A stretch of 64,000 nucleotides of DNA from Escherichia coli (GCF_003019035.1 NZ_CP027447.1), one strand, 5' to 3'; positions 3,314 to 62,922 are shown, numbered from the stretch's first letter. Translations and numbers: made by a program. Notes: generated by a model not told the origin, from the sequence alone.

Positions 3314-4057
3314 TTAGCAACAGGCCAGTTCGAAATCCAGACGTTCCGGTACCTGTCCGTTTTCACTGTCCAGCGGCATAAAACGAATGGCAAAACGGCT
3401 CTTATGACCGGAAATTTGCGGATAAAGCTGTGAATCGAGTGACAGATTCAGGCGCAGCAAGTCGGCATCGCCACCGTTATCCTGATAAAAACCATTCAGG
3501 CTGGTTTGTTTACGGAAGGGGGCCGACTGGCGAATTAAATCCAGCACCATGGTAAGTGCCTGGGTGAGCGGGTTCAGGCTGGCAATCCAGGTTTCTACCT
3601 GGCTGTCGCGCTGCGCCTGGGGTAGATGCAGCCAAATGTGCAATGTAGGTAAATCAAAGCTACAACAGCCGCCTGGGATGCTCAGTCGCTGACGCACCAG
3701 AGCAATCAAACGATCTTCACGCAGAAATTGCCCGATACGCGGCGCGGAAATTAATACGCTCCCCGCCGCTTTTAACTGCTGAATTAATGCTTCAATACGG
3801 CTCTGGTCCACGCCAGGCACGCCAATCCAGGTCTGGAGTTTACGTTGCTGCCGGTCAAGTTCTTTCAACAGCTCAGTGCGGACTTCGCCGCGCTCGAAAA
3901 CATCCAGTAATTCACTGACATTACGGAAGAAATGCAGCGCGCCAGCGTGGTCAACGATGGGTAAATTAACGGTAAGTTGCTGAATCAAAAACTCAATGCG
4001 CAGCCATGTACGCATTTTTTCATTTAGTGGATGTTCAAAAAGGACCTGGGTCTGCAT
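3314..4057 (-). CDS. zapD: Cell division factor ZapD (YacF)
   Basis: 247-aa ORF recognised as ZapD; start overlaps coaE stop (TAATG). Confidence 0.93.
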
Positions 4058-4677
4058 TACGGTTTTTCCTGTGAGACAAACTGCGACGCAAGCTGCAAAT
4101 AGTGTGCGTGCAGGCGGGCAACATCCGATGCGATAGCATCCGGTGCGCCGTTATTATCAATGACGTCATCTGCCACGGCAAGGCGAGCTTCGCGCGTTGC
4201 CTGAGCAGCAAGGATTTGTTCGACATGCTCGCGAGTTACATCGTCGCGCTGCATGGTGCGCTTAAGTTGCGTTTCTGGGCTGACATCCACCACCAGCACT
4301 CGATTCGCTTTTTTATACAGTGAGTTTTCTACCAGCAATGGCACAACCCATAGTACATAGGGGGAAGTAGCTTGCTGGATCTGGTGTTGCGTCTCTTGCT
4401 GAATCAGCGGATGCAGCAGGGCGTTAAGCCAGTTTTTCTCTTCCGGGTTGGCGAAGATCCGCTCGCGCAAGGCCCGGCGCTGCAATGTTCCATCAGCAGC
4501 AATCATGTTAGCGCCAAAGTGATCAGCAATGGCATGTAGCGCAGGTGCACCTGGTTCAACCACCTGACGCGCAATAATATCGGCATCAATGACGTTAATT
4601 CCGAGATCAGCAAACGCATTGGCAACGGTACTCTTGCCACTGCCAATGCCTCCCGTTAAGGCAACTATATACCTCAT
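4057..4677 (-). CDS. coaE: Dephospho-CoA kinase
   Basis: 206-aa ORF; N-terminal P-loop GGIGSGKST. Confidence 0.95.
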
Positions 4678-5981: not shown

Positions 5982-7182
5982 ATCCCATTCCACTCATCGC
6001 ATCGCCTAAATGGAAAATTGGCAGATACATTGCCACCACCAGCGTACCGATAATTCCTCCCGTTATGATCAGCAACGCCGGTTCCAGTAAGGCTGCGAGG
6101 TTATCCGCCAGCGCCATTGTGTTATCCCGATGATGATGGGCGAGGTTGTCTAACATGAGATCCAGCGAGCCGGATGCCTCTCCTGTTCTCACTAATTGCA
6201 AACAGAGCGGGCTAAACTCACCGGCATTTTTTAGCGCCAGCCAGATGGGGTGACCGTTACTGATATCGTGCTGGATTTGTGTCAGAAGTTGCACCCAGTA
6301 CGGGCAGCGCATTGTTTCTCTGACGCTCTCAACGCCCTGTAAAAAAGTAATGCCTGCACTTTGTGTCAGCGCCAGAATCGTAAAGATCTGCGTGAGTTTT
6401 TGTCCCCGCATCAGTGAACCCATAATCGGGATGCGTAACAGCAATTTCTGCCGTGCGATAAGCCTGGTTGGGTGGCGCATCAGCAGCTTATTGGCTATCG
6501 CCAGCAGAAAGCCGAATAGCACCAGCAACCAACCCCATTCGCCACTAAAGCTTGCCAGCGTCATGATCCCCTGCGTTAGCGCCGGTAGCGGAGTGTTAAA
6601 GGTCTTATAGATAGCGGCAAACTCCGGCAGAACAAAATGCAGCATTGCCACAACCACCATGATTGCCATCGCTAAAATGATAATGGGATAACGTAACGCT
6701 GATTTCACTTTGTCGGTCAACTGACGCTGGGCTTTTTGTTGACGCGCCAGTTCAAAGCAGCATTCATCCAGCTTACCGGTCAGTTCACCCGTGCGGATCA
6801 TCGCCTGATAGAGCGGCGGAAATACCTCTGACCAGGGTAATAAGGCATTGGAAAAGGCAATGCCCTGTTCGAGATCGTGTGCCAGCGATTGCAGCAACGC
6901 TTGCCATTGCTTACTGGGATGCTGTTCCGCCAGCAGTGCCAGCCCTTCAGAAAGCGTTAACCCGGCTTTGAGTAGCGTCGCCAGTTGATGAATGACTTCC
7001 GCGCTTTTATCTCCTCGCCACTGCGCAGAATTGATGGCGATTCGCTTCAGGCTAAGTGGGGTAACCATCTGTTGCTGTAGTGCCATAAGCAGTAAAGCAC
7101 GACTCTCTGCCCATAGCATCCCATCTTGCGCATTACCGTCGCCGGTTATGCCATGCCAGCGCCAGAGTTGCTTACTCGCCAT
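5980..7182 (-). CDS. hofC: Type IV pilus assembly inner-membrane platform protein (GspF/PilC family)
   Basis: 400-aa ORF with GspF-like duplicated domain architecture; overlaps hofB stop by 11 nt. Confidence 0.92.
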   Translation of the reverse strand: MASKQLWRWHGITGDGNAQDGMLWAESRALLLMALQQQMVTPLSLKRIAINSAQWRGDKSAEVIHQLATLLKAGLTLSEGLALLAEQHPSKQWQALLQSLAHDLEQGIAFSNALLPWSEVFPPLYQAMIRTGELTGKLDECCFELARQQKAQRQLTDKVKSALRYPIIILAMAIMVVVAMLHFVLPEFAAIYKTFNTPLPALTQGIMTLASFSGEWGWLLVLFGFLLAIANKLLMRHPTRLIARQKLLLRIPIMGSLMRGQKLTQIFTILALTQSAGITFLQGVESVRETMRCPYWVQLLTQIQHDISNGHPIWLALKNAGEFSPLCLQLVRTGEASGSLDLMLDNLAHHHRDNTMALADNLAALLEPALLIITGGIIGTLVVAMYLPIFHLGDAMSGMG

Positions 7183-10191: not shown

Positions 10192-10743
10192 ATGTTGTTA
10201 GAACAGGGGTGGCTGGTTGGCGCGCGCCGCGTTCCCTCACCACATTACGATTGCCGCCCGGATGACGAAACACCCACCCTGCTGGTGGTGCACAATATTA
10301 GCCTGCCGCCAGGCGAGTTTGGCGGTCCGTGGATCGACGCATTATTCACTGGAACTATTGATCCGCAGGCACATCCTTTCTTTGCTGAGATCGCCCATTT
10401 GCGCGTCTCCGCTCACTGTTTGATTCGCCGCGATGGTGAAATAGTCCAGTATGTTCCTTTCGATAAACGTGCCTGGCATGCGGGAGTCTCTCAGTATCAG
10501 GGGCGTGAACGCTGCAATGATTTTTCTATTGGGATTGAGCTGGAAGGCACCGATACGCTGGCGTATACCGATGCGCAGTATCAACAGCTTGCGGTGGTTA
10601 CGCGGGCACTGATTGATCGCTATCCGGATATCGCTAATAACATGACGGGCCATTGTGATATTGCGCCGGATCGGAAAACCGATCCCGGTCCTGCATTTGA
10701 TTGGGCACGGTTTCGTGCGCTGGTCAGCAAGGAGACAACATGA
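10192..10743 (+). CDS. ampD: 1,6-anhydro-N-acetylmuramyl-L-alanine amidase AmpD
   Basis: 183-aa ORF recognised as AmpD (amidase_2 fold). Confidence 0.95.
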
Positions 10744-34891: not shown

Positions 34892-35658
34892 TGCATCTTT
34901 ACTGGGTGGCGCTAAAAAGCATCTGGGCGAAAGAGATCCATCGCTTTATGCGTATCTGGGTGCAGACGCTGGTGCCACCGGTCATCACCATGACCCTTTA
35001 TTTTATTATCTTCGGTAACCTGATTGGTTCGCGCATCGGCGATATGCATGGCTTCAGCTATATGCAGTTCATCGTGCCGGGGCTGATCATGATGTCGGTA
35101 ATCACCAATGCCTACGCCAACGTCGCTTCATCATTTTTTGGTGCCAAGTTCCAGCGTAATATTGAAGAGCTGCTGGTAGCGCCGGTTCCGACTCATGTCA
35201 TTATTGCCGGATATGTCGGTGGTGGCGTGGCGCGTGGTCTGCTTGTTGGCATGCTGGTGACAGCAATTTCGCTGTTCTTTGTGCCGTTTCAGGTGCATTC
35301 GTGGGTATTCGTTGCCTTAACCCTGGTGCTCACTGCGGTGCTATTCTCCCTTGCGGGTTTGCTGAACGGCGTGTTTGCCAAAACGTTCGATGACATCAGC
35401 CTGGTGCCAACCTTTGTGTTAACGCCACTTACGTATTTGGGCGGGGTCTTTTACTCCCTGACTTTGCTGCCGCCGTTCTGGCAGGGACTGTCGCACCTGA
35501 ACCCGATCGTTTATATGATCAGTGGTTTCCGCTACGGCTTCCTCGGTATCAATGATGTTCCGCTGGTCACTACCTTTGGCGTACTGGTGGTCTTTATTGT
35601 GGCGTTTTATTTGATCTGTTGGTCGCTGATCCAACGTGGACGTGGTTTGCGTAGCTAA
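34888..35658 (+). CDS. yadH: ABC-2 type transporter permease YadH
   Basis: 256-aa hydrophobic ORF; ATG overlaps yadG stop (ATGA). Confidence 0.93.
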   Translation: MMHLYWVALKSIWAKEIHRFMRIWVQTLVPPVITMTLYFIIFGNLIGSRIGDMHGFSYMQFIVPGLIMMSVITNAYANVASSFFGAKFQRNIEELLVAPVPTHVIIAGYVGGGVARGLLVGMLVTAISLFFVPFQVHSWVFVALTLVLTAVLFSLAGLLNGVFAKTFDDISLVPTFVLTPLTYLGGVFYSLTLLPPFWQGLSHLNPIVYMISGFRYGFLGINDVPLVTTFGVLVVFIVAFYLICWSLIQRGRGLRS

Positions 35659-48772: not shown

Positions 48773-49291
48773 CTATTTTCGGAATTTATTTATATTTGCA
48801 ACACTATTGTATTGCCATTTATTTAATTCATCGAATTTATTTATTCGTAAAAAGTTGTCTAATACTGTCCCATCAGGAAACACTAACTTCGGCGCAATTT
48901 CAAACAGTGGCCACAGCATAAAGCCACGATTTTTCATATCGTAGTGCGGAACGGTCAGACGTTCGGTATTTATTACTTCATTACCAAACAGCATGATGTC
49001 GAGATCCAGCGTGCGCGGTCCCCAGCGTTCAGCTTTACGGACGCGACCTTGCTGCAATTCGATACGTTGTGTGTGATTGAGTAGCTCTTCAGGGGCAAGA
49101 GTGGTTTCCAGCGCGACGGCGGCATTTAAGTAATCGGGTTGATCTTGCGGCCCCAGCGGTGGGGTGCGGTAAAACGAAGAAACAGCAAGAATGCGGCTTT
49201 CTGGAATATCGCCTAATGCTTTCAGGGCAGCATTGACCTGCTCCAGCGGAGAGGCCAGATTGCTGCCTATGGCAATATACGCCACTGTCAT
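48773..49291 (-). CDS. folK: 2-amino-4-hydroxy-6-hydroxymethyldihydropteridine pyrophosphokinase
   Basis: 172-aa ORF starting [12 protein letters not shown]; start overlaps pcnB stop (ATGA); 3' end extends into AT-rich DNA. Confidence 0.92.
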
Positions 49292-50685
49292 GCGGTACCC
49301 TCACGACGCGGTGCGCGTTTGCGTGGACGACGAGTACGACGACGCGGTGACGGTTCTTCATCCAGTTCGTTAAGCATCCCTTTTTGGTCTGGCGGCGCGG
49401 AAACCTGGAACTCACCCCACCATTTCACCAGACGTTGCAGTTCAGCGTTACGCTCAACTTCGGCTCGTAAGGCCAACAGGTCGTATGCCGCACGGAACTT
49501 AGGATGCTCCAGCAGTTTCCATGCGCGTTTTCCCTGACGACGGGACATACGCAACTGCAACTGCCAGATATCGCGAGTTAGCGTAGTCAGACGTTTCGGG
49601 ATCGCCAGTGAACGGCAGGCTTCGTCCAGCACGTCGTTCATCGCCAGTGCGAAAGCGTCGTGATAGGTCAGGCCGCTCTCCTGAGCAATTTTCTGTGCCG
49701 TCTCCAGCAGTGGATACCAGAACATGGCGGCAAACAGGAACGCCGGGTTCACGCGCATATCGTTATGGATACGCGTATCGGTATTCTTCAGCACCTGTTC
49801 AATGATCCGCTCCATCGGGCTGTCGCCATTTTCCGTGAAGTAGCGGGTAATGGTCGGGAACAGCGGCTGGAACAGATGATATTCACACAGCAGCTTATAA
49901 GTTTCGTAACCGTAGCCCGCTTGCAACAGTTTCAGCGATTCTTCAAACAGACGTGCCGGTGGGATATCGTTCAGTAAGGTTGCCAGGCGTGGGATCGGCT
50001 CGGCGGTTTCCGGGCTGATGCGCATGCCCAATTTGGCGGCAAAACGAACCGCGCGAAGCATCCGTACCGGATCTTCACGGTAGCGCGTTTCCGGGTTACC
50101 AATCAGACGGATAACGCCGTCTTTCAGATCCTTCATGCCGCCAACGTAATCACGGACGGTAAAATCTGCCACGCTGTAATACAGGCTGTTGATAGTGAAA
50201 TCGCGGCGCTGGGCGTCTTCTTCGATGGAGCCGAAAATGTTGTCGCGCAGCAACATACCGTTTTGCCCGCGTTGGGAGGTCGTGCGGTCGCTGACGTTAC
50301 CTTCGTGATGTCCACGGAAGGTCGCAACTTCGATAATCTCCGGGCCAAACATCACATGAGCCAGACGGAAACGGCGACCCACCAGGCGGCAGTTACGGAA
50401 CAGTTTGCGCACCTGCTCTGGCGTGGCGTTGGTGGTCACGTCAAAATCTTTCGGCTTTTTGCCAAGTAACAGGTCGCGCACGCCGCCGCCAACCAGCCAG
50501 GCTTCGTATCCCGCTTTATTGAGCCTGTACATTACCTTCAGGGCATTTTCACTGATATCTTTGCGGGAAATAGCATGCTGCTCACGCGGGATCACCGTCA
50601 CCTGTGGACGGGCGACTGCCTGTTCAGCCTCGCTTTCCTCGCGGCTTAGCACCTTGCGGCAAAAATTAGCGACTCGGGTAAAAAT
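49288..50685 (-). CDS. pcnB: Poly(A) polymerase I
   Basis: Start assigned to the AUU codon encoding the I of ...[10 protein letters not shown] (established non-canonical start), 465 aa; ORF-track frame extends 7 codons further upstream. Confidence 0.9.
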
Positions 50686-58879: not shown

Positions 58880-58905
58880 TTATCTTTATAATAATCATTC
58901 TCGTT
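58880..58905 (+). promoter_or_regulatory. Fur-box-like element in fhuA promoter
   Basis: cttatctttATAATAATCATTCTCgtt resembles GATAATGATAATCATTATC; about 40 bp upstream of fhuA start. Confidence 0.6.
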
Positions 58906-61234: not shown

Positions 61235-62032
61235 ATGCAGGAATACACGAATCATTCCGATACCACTTTTGCACTGCGTAATATCTCCTTTCGTGTGCCC
61301 GGGCGCACGCTTTTGCATCCGCTGTCGTTAACCTTTCCTGCCGGGAAAGTGACCGGTCTGATTGGTCACAACGGTTCTGGTAAATCCACTCTGCTCAAAA
61401 TGCTTGGTCGTCACCAGCCGCCGTCGGAAGGGGAGATTCTTCTTGATGCCCAGCCGCTGGAAAGCTGGAGCAGCAAAGCGTTTGCCCGCAAAGTGGCTTA
61501 TTTGCCGCAGCAGCTTCCTCCGGCAGAAGGGATGACGGTGCGTGAACTGGTGGCGATTGGTCGTTACCCGTGGCATGGCGCACTAGGGCGCTTTGGTGCG
61601 GCAGATCGCGAAAAGGTCGAGGAAGCTATCTCGCTGGTTGGCTTAAAACCGCTGGCGCATCGGCTGGTCGATAGTCTCTCTGGCGGCGAACGTCAGCGGG
61701 CGTGGATCGCCATGCTGGTGGCGCAGGATAGCCGTTGTCTGTTGCTCGACGAACCGACCTCGGCGCTGGATATCGCCCACCAGGTTGATGTGCTGGCGCT
61801 GGTGCATCGTTTAAGTCAGGAGCGTGGCCTGACGGTCATTGCCGTGCTGCACGATATCAATATGGCTGCGCGTTACTGTGATTATCTGGTCGCCCTGCGC
61901 GGCGGTGAAATGATTGCTCAGGGAACGCCTGCGGAAATTATGCGCGGCGAAACCCTTGAAATGATTTATGGCATCCCGATGGGTATTTTGCCGCATCCGG
62001 CGGGTGCTGCACCTGTGAGTTTTGTTTATTGA
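61235..62032 (+). CDS. fhuC: Ferric hydroxamate ABC transporter ATP-binding protein
   Basis: Start at MQEYTNHSDTTF; Walker A GHNGSGKST, signature LSGGERQR; 265 aa. Confidence 0.95.
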   Translation: MQEYTNHSDTTFALRNISFRVPGRTLLHPLSLTFPAGKVTGLIGHNGSGKSTLLKMLGRHQPPSEGEILLDAQPLESWSSKAFARKVAYLPQQLPPAEGMTVRELVAIGRYPWHGALGRFGAADREKVEEAISLVGLKPLAHRLVDSLSGGERQRAWIAMLVAQDSRCLLLDEPTSALDIAHQVDVLALVHRLSQERGLTVIAVLHDINMAARYCDYLVALRGGEMIAQGTPAEIMRGETLEMIYGIPMGILPHPAGAAPVSFVY

Positions 62033-62922
62033 TGAGCGGCTTACCTCTTATTTCGCGCCGTCGACTGTTAACGGCGATGGCGCTTTCTCCGTTGTTATGG
62101 CAGATGAATACCGCCCACGCGGCGGCTATTGATCCCAATCGTATTGTGGCGCTGGAGTGGTTGCCGGTGGAATTACTGCTGGCGCTCGGCATCGTGCCTT
62201 ACGGCGTGGCGGATACCATCAACTATCGCCTGTGGGTCAGCGAACCACCATTGCCGGACTCAGTGATCGACGTCGGTTTGCGCACAGAACCTAACCTTGA
62301 ACTGCTGACCGAAATGAAACCATCGTTTATGGTCTGGTCGGCAGGATATGGCCCTTCACCAGAAATGCTGGCACGCATTGCGCCGGGTCGCGGATTTAAC
62401 TTCAGTGACGGCAAACAGCCGCTGGCGATGGCGCGTAAATCACTGACGGAAATGGCAGATTTACTTAACCTGCAAAGCGCAGCAGAAACGCATTTAGCGC
62501 ACTATGAAGACTTTATCCGCAGCATGAAACCCCGCTTTGTGAAGCGTGGTGCACGCCCGTTATTGCTGACGACACTTATCGATCCGCGCCATATGTTGGT
62601 CTTCGGTCCAAACAGCCTGTTCCAGGAAATTCTTGATGAGTACGGCATCCCAAATGCCTGGCAAGGGGAAACCAACTTCTGGGGCAGTACCGCTGTCAGT
62701 ATCGATCGTCTGGCAGCGTATAAAGACGTTGATGTGCTCTGTTTTGATCACGACAACAGCAAAGACATGGACACCCTAATGGCGACGCCGCTGTGGCAGG
62801 CTATGCCGTTTGTCCGCGCCGGACGCTTTCAGCGCGTACCTGCAGTCTGGTTTTATGGTGCGACGCTCTCGGCAATGCACTTTGTGCGTATTCTGGATAA
62901 CGCCATTGGAGGTAAAGCGTGA
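62032..62922 (+). CDS. fhuD: Ferric hydroxamate periplasmic binding protein
   Basis: ATG at 62032 overlapping fhuC stop by 1 nt (TGATG); 296 aa; twin-arginine-like signal SRRRLLTAMAL. Confidence 0.94.
   Translation: MSGLPLISRRRLLTAMALSPLLWQMNTAHAAAIDPNRIVALEWLPVELLLALGIVPYGVADTINYRLWVSEPPLPDSVIDVGLRTEPNLELLTEMKPSFMVWSAGYGPSPEMLARIAPGRGFNFSDGKQPLAMARKSLTEMADLLNLQSAAETHLAHYEDFIRSMKPRFVKRGARPLLLTTLIDPRHMLVFGPNSLFQEILDEYGIPNAWQGETNFWGSTAVSIDRLAAYKDVDVLCFDHDNSKDMDTLMATPLWQAMPFVRAGRFQRVPAVWFYGATLSAMHFVRILDNAIGGKA

Follow-up and report, generated by a model that had tools for sequence, protein, structure and literature searches.

Overlapping genes in the secA-fhuB region

The DNA analyzed here is a stretch of 64,000 nucleotides, called the window below, which corresponds to the part of the E. 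coli chromosome extending from secA to fhuB and is found at about 108-173 kb in K-12. Over its full length the window corresponds to the reverse complement of positions 3993689-4057688 of NZ_CP051751.1 (strain SCU-301), with three single-base differences located at 24828 (acnB), 45641 (usher gene of the yad fimbrial cluster) and 63139 (fhuB). Because of the last one, codon 74 of fhuB reads CAG (Gln) in the window and CTG (Leu) in the SCU-301 record. A region of 3 kb around fhuD has matches in 5,424 of the 5,426 complete E. coli genomes; it is 100% identical to SCU-301 and 95-99% identical to over 5,300 E. coli genomes.

Gene junctions were read directly on the sequence after conversion of the PGAP annotation of SCU-301 to window coordinates. 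The gene content, the gene order (fhuA-fhuC-fhuD-fhuB) and the orthologous proteins of fhuACDB are those of K-12, and genes, order and junction cores are the same as in the known operon that encodes the type II ABC importer FhuCDB (PMC8660799). The middle gene of fhuCDB, fhuD (62032-62922, + strand), codes for a periplasmic ferric-hydroxamate binding protein of 296 aa and overlaps both of its neighbors. With fhuC it shares one nucleotide (-1 overlap) in a TGATG at 62030-62034 (+ strand), made of the fhuC stop TGA (62030-62032) and the fhuD start ATG (62032-62034). With fhuB it shares four nucleotides (-4 overlap) in a GTGA at 62919-62922 (+ strand), made of the fhuB start GTG (62919-62921) and the fhuD stop TGA (62920-62922). 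A previous sequence-only reading of the window had used 62029 as its start coordinate here, which is the in-frame TTG where the longest ORF begins and not the annotated start. We rejected this TTG as the start of fhuD: a start-like TTG is found at this place in no more than 31 of the 80 species surveyed below, and the ATG at 62032 is kept in all of them.

Two more overlaps of the -4 type are present on the + strand. The ampD stop and the ampE start share the ATGA at 10740-10743, preceded by an SD (Shine-Dalgarno) sequence AAGGAG at 10729-10734, and the K-12 annotation agrees. The yadG stop and the yadH start share the ATGA at 34888-34891, with an SD AAGGAG at 34875-34880; here the sequence reads ATGATG (34888-34893), so that two starts are on offer, the annotated ATG with a -4 overlap and the next ATG with a -1 overlap. 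On the - strand, pcnB and folK share the ATGA at 49288-49291, with an SD-like GAGGG at 49298-49302, and the coaE stop and the zapD start share base 4057 within a TAATG at 4055-4059, with a weak SD. The six overlaps claimed by the sequence-only reading are thus all confirmed by the sequence and the annotation, with a correction of strand for the last two pairs, which are both on the - strand, pcnB being upstream of folK. A seventh junction was absent from that reading: hofB and hofC (- strand, 7172-7182) share 11 nt, ATGGCGAGTAA, also in the K-12 annotation, and this overlap is longer than those of the -4/-1 class. All seven junctions have the same geometry in the PGAP annotation of SCU-301 and in the annotation of K-12 MG1655. 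Their cores are identical in the window and in K-12, and the 0-3 substitutions per 61 nt that distinguish K-12 from this strain near the junctions leave the architecture unchanged.

Some other features of the annotation deserve mention. The annotated start of pcnB is an ATT (50683-50685, - strand), a non-canonical start codon (AUU) that is known for poly(A) polymerase I; the ribosome density of this gene is nevertheless above that of folK downstream. FolK has 172 aa here and 159 aa in K-12: its last ~20 residues are wholly different and the protein is extended (48773-48860, - strand), at a break that adjoins the variable yad fimbrial cluster. Two PGAP starts look doubtful, both on the - strand: the ATA of yadM (44391), which has an ATG one codon downstream, and the ATC of the fimbrial usher gene (46996), which has a GTG four codons upstream, htrE of K-12 also starting with GTG. 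Finally, YacH contains a low-complexity stretch rich in His and Asp, DWDDDDHDHHHHDDDDYHHHDGGH (21600-21720, - strand, inside yacH), and its C-terminal half carries repeated units of ~30 residues (…QRQAVREKMQTNPQ.QQRREAAR.RIQSASPE…).

Overlaps and chance

Motifs of this kind are frequent. On both strands of the window we counted 530 ATGA, 522 GTGA and 231 TGATG, and 4 of the 47 other gene ends bear an overlap-type motif without any gene starting there. The motif string by itself means nothing. Its coincidence with real gene boundaries, on the other hand, is not due to chance. Among the 37 pairs of neighboring genes located on the same strand in the window, 7 overlap (19%). When only spacings between -20 and +20 nt are considered (15 pairs), the exact values -4 or -1 account for 6 pairs and the values 0 to +8 for none. 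The enrichment at -4 and -1 has a binomial P of 4.6e-5 relative to a uniform spacing model.

These figures resemble those reported for the general class of stop-start overlaps. In most groups of prokaryotes the share of overlapping pairs among co-directional ones is about 15% (PMC6728339), to be compared with the 19% given above, and the commonest co-directional spacings in prokaryotes are -4 and -1 (PMC12548453), a geometry identical to the one found here. As in this class (PMC6728339, PMC12548453), most downstream genes are preceded by an SD located inside the upstream gene, and for most pairs of the window the ribosome density of the downstream gene is equal to or lower than that of the upstream gene.

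Conservation of the fhu junctions in Enterobacteriaceae

The two fhu junctions were surveyed in 80 Enterobacteriaceae loci, with one genome per species and FhuD identities ranging from 72 to 99%; the genera represented include Escherichia, Citrobacter, Salmonella, Klebsiella, Enterobacter, Kosakonia, Kluyvera and Raoultella. All 80 species keep both the -1 overlap of fhuC and fhuD (55 TGATG and 25 TAATG) and the -4 overlap of fhuD and fhuB (45 ATGA and 35 GTGA). In other words, the stop codon (TGA or TAA) and the start codon (ATG or GTG) vary while the geometry of the overlap stays fixed. The spacer between fhuA and fhuC, which do not overlap, was used as a control: at the same loci it takes 11 different lengths, from 44 to 56 nt. 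The position of the fhuD ATG is constant in spite of the divergence of the protein that it opens, the first six residues of FhuD existing in 56 variants over the 80 loci, and the next in-frame start-like codon of fhuD does not occupy a conserved position. Comparison of these sequences indicates clear purifying selection on the geometry of the fhu junctions across Enterobacteriaceae.

The two junctions differ by their SD. In the 80 species an SD before fhuD is systematically absent (median anti-SD duplex energy -3.0 kcal/mol), and fhuB has a strong SD in all of them (median -10.2 kcal/mol). In the SD of fhuB the first Gly codon is GGA in 69 species and GGG in 11, and never GGC or GGT. Since GGA makes up 10% of the remaining Gly codons of these fhuD genes, and GGC and GGT together 71%, this restriction to GGA and GGG at a single place points to selection acting on the nucleotides rather than on the protein, with the reservation that the species compared are related.

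Shine-Dalgarno sequences and RNA structure

Within the window, SD strength was measured in the same way, as the energy of the duplex with the anti-SD. At the four -4 junctions the SD is moderate to strong and is located inside the upstream gene: GGAGGT for fhuB (-10.6 kcal/mol), the SD of ampE and that of yadH (-8.5 kcal/mol each), and GAGGG for folK (-6.2 kcal/mol). The GGAGGT of fhuB (62908-62913, + strand) lies within the last fhuD codons, where it encodes Gly-Gly, 5 nt before the GTG. At the two -1 junctions, zapD has a weak SD (-4.3 kcal/mol) and fhuD has none (-2.2 kcal/mol).

No unusually stable fold was found at the seven junction regions by comparison with shuffled sequence (z = -1.58 to +1.15). 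In the fold predicted for the fhuB region of E. coli, the GGAG and the GUG start are paired in a 22-bp hairpin, which also appears in the centroid structure; this fold does not exceed shuffled sequence in stability (z = -1.05). We rejected the candidate of a conserved hairpin hiding the fhuB start: RNAalifold did not find a consensus structure over 81 sequences, and the E. coli hairpin, once imposed on the alignment, gave 68.2% of paired cells where column shuffles gave 68.4%, and covariation was not in excess either.

In the last codons of fhuC, directly before the fhuD start (62000-62026, + strand), GCGGGTGCTGCACCTGT resembles the hairpin of a terminator, and a U-rich run, GAGTTTTGTTTATTG, comes after it. 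The U-rich tract could be a landing site for SD-independent ribosomes or a weak attenuator. The scan for such sites returned 13 where 6.9 are expected, and the one at the end of fhuC may be due to chance.

Ribosome densities across the junctions

The sequence-only reading had proposed ribosome profiling as a check of coupling. Densities were taken from the RPKM tables (S1 Data for mRNA, S2 Data for footprints) published for E. coli K-12 NCM3722 in 12 conditions and in triplicate, i.e. 36 samples (PMC9624429). For each pair we computed the median ratio of footprint densities, downstream over upstream, and the correlation r of log densities. In four pairs the downstream gene is no more occupied than the upstream one and the two co-vary: fhuD/fhuC (ratio 0.32, r = 0.91), fhuB/fhuD (0.85, r = 0.87), ampE/ampD (0.68, r = 0.86) and folK/pcnB (0.37, r = 0.47). 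The pair yadH/yadG is borderline (1.11, r = 0.73). The check fails for zapD/coaE, with a ratio of 1.74, up to 3.8 in rich medium, and an r of 0.00 over the 36 samples. Ratios of this kind do not tell reinitiation apart from an independent initiation that is weak.

For the fhu genes, the densities of FhuC, FhuD and FhuB in batch cultures that express the operon are 2:0.9:0.5 in glucose minimal medium and 2:1.2:1.06 in rich MOPS. They approach a 2:1:1 composition, which is that of the transporter, the solved importer containing 2 FhuC, 1 FhuB and 1 FhuD (PMC8660799). The resemblance is suggestive only, fhu read counts being low outside these two batch cultures and the fhuD/fhuC ratio varying from 0.16 to 0.60 with the condition. 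Mass-spectrometry proteome tables (PMC8144880) are unusable for such ratios: FhuD and FhuB are undetected in them and FhuC is sparse.

The behavior of zapD is incompatible with a "tight" one-to-one coupling to coaE. Its density exceeds that of coaE and is uncorrelated with it; therefore zapD receives ribosomes or transcripts independently of coaE. The group coaE-zapD-yacG has been treated as an operon of unknown regulation (PMC4083091). A promoter scan inside coaE returned one weak sigma-70-like site, which is fewer than chance expects. This site (TTGCCG-17-GATAAT, 4181 to 4153 on the - strand, 9 matches out of 12) is located ~96 nt upstream of the zapD ATG and, as a match to the consensus, is a possible promoter behind the excess of zapD density.

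Probable translational coupling at the overlaps

We consider that the overlaps are ordinary intra-operon junctions and that fhuCDB is coupled by termination-reinitiation, a reading to which we give a probability of about 0.8. A ribosome ending fhuC at the UGA would re-initiate at the AUG that shares its A, independently of any SD and with an efficiency of ~0.2-0.6. Because this junction is without SD, fhuD probably depends largely on ribosomes terminating fhuC. A ribosome ending fhuD would then re-initiate one base back, at the GUG, with an efficiency of ~0.6-1, and this second event would be aided by the strong and apparently selectively maintained SD carried in the fhuD frame. The pairs ampDE, yadGH and pcnB-folK probably function like fhuD-fhuB, by SD-assisted reinitiation or by mixed initiation. 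For coaE-zapD, an additional and independent initiation or transcription is clearly involved.

Junctions of this type are known elsewhere in E. coli. In the trp operon, coupling has been shown experimentally at trpE-trpD and trpB-trpA, where the junction reads UGAUG. The 1-nt TGATG overlap of fhuC and fhuD likewise joins genes whose products form a complex. Native ATGA pairs of E. coli have been assayed as well: among hyfHI, astDB, ydbH/ynbE, menDH and bioBF, four were strictly coupled and the fifth, bioBF, was initiated independently, the contribution of the SD ranging from essential to none (PMC6728339). The pairs of the window are distinct from these five, and we infer here their dependence on upstream translation. 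A full-text literature search returned no paper that names fhuC, fhuD and fhuB together with "translational coupling", and no published assay of the pairs of the window was found.

Could the overlaps be neutral by-products of a compact genome, in which NTGA evolves easily from a start codon, the downstream genes being initiated de novo and uncoupled? Independent initiation could rely on the strong SDs of fhuB, ampE and yadH, none of the junctions has a predicted inhibitory structure, bioBF is uncoupled (PMC6728339), and zapD is denser in ribosomes than coaE. We nevertheless find this explanation improbable: both fhu spacings are invariant in 80 species in which the spacer between fhuA and fhuC takes 11 lengths, fhuD is without an SD in every one of these species and yet is translated and co-varies with fhuC (r = 0.91), and four of the five ATGA pairs assayed in E. 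coli were coupled (PMC6728339). A different form of coupling, in which the ribosome binding site of the downstream gene is held in a hairpin and is freed for a new ribosome when a ribosome translating the upstream gene melts it, is one of the two accepted models (PMC12548453), and the predicted burial of the fhuB GGAG and GUG would suit it. It becomes very improbable when the fold is compared with its controls, its stability being that of shuffled sequence at fhuB as at the other junctions (-1.58 to +1.15), with neither a consensus structure nor a pairing or covariation above shuffled alignments.

An artefact of annotation is hardly credible. Gene finders prefer a start codon overlapping the stop of the gene before it, and the true starts would then be located farther downstream; the odd PGAP starts of yadM (ATA) and of the usher gene (ATC), the two adjacent ATGs at the yadH junction and the absence of entries for these genes in the supplements of tetracycline start-site profiling (PMC4909307) go in this direction. 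Against it, an independent annotation, that of K-12, agrees at all seven junctions, the ATG of fhuD and the ATG or GTG of fhuB occupy the same position in 80 of 80 species, with a correctly spaced SD in the case of fhuB, and the alternative start-like codon of fhuD is not found at a conserved position.

The claims made from the sequence alone have to be moderated. That an overlap indicates translational coupling follows established knowledge, but an overlap alone is no proof of it, bioBF being independent and coaE/zapD not strictly coupled: it is a good predictor. As to the expression "tightly coupled", coupling is likely at both fhu junctions, but the term is too strong for the passage from fhuC to fhuD, where the footprint ratio goes from 0.16 to 0.60 between conditions. 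A more speculative proposal, which we regard as unlikely, is that the junctions act as a device setting ratios: about one ribosome in two would be handed on at the -1 junction, which has no SD (FhuC to FhuD ~2:1), and almost all of them at the SD-assisted -4 junction (FhuD to FhuB ~1:1). If this were true, the 2:1:1 stoichiometry of the FhuC2-FhuD-FhuB importer would be written into the junction sequence. In the window the SD is weak or absent at both -1 junctions and moderate to strong at all four -4 junctions.

Operon membership and significance of the overlaps

The overlaps had also been said to fix operon membership. Since an intergenic terminator cannot fit between two genes that overlap, such a pair is almost certainly co-transcribed, and the claim holds in this weak sense only: the boundaries of operons are not set in this way. 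Genes of the same operon may be separated by a gap, as is the case for fhuA (50 nt) and for yacG and ppdD (9 nt each). Moreover, an overlap excludes neither internal promoters nor unequal mRNA levels or differential mRNA decay: the mRNA ratio of folK to pcnB is 0.19 (S1 Data, PMC9624429). Upstream of fhuA, a Fur-box-like sequence, CTTTATAATAATCATTCTC (58884-58902, + strand), overlaps a promoter-like -10 region. This best match to the consensus (14 of 19) has a score reached eight times in the window, and it fits with an iron regulation of the fhu operon as far as such a match can tell.

The phenomenon is a textbook one, and the case of fhuCDB is already known: Hu and Zheng (2021) mentioned "overlapping nucleotides between adjacent genes" in fhuCDB and proposed that co-translation aids the assembly of the complex (PMC8660799). 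The invariance of the junctions across species and the rare-codon SD of fhuB are tidy confirmations and not discoveries, and the overlaps have little import beyond good annotation practice. The pair coaE/zapD warns against reading an overlap as the proof of tight coupling, and an overlap does not delimit operons. Within these bounds, a start/stop overlap is a reliable cue, long in use, to a shared transcript and to a probable translational linkage.
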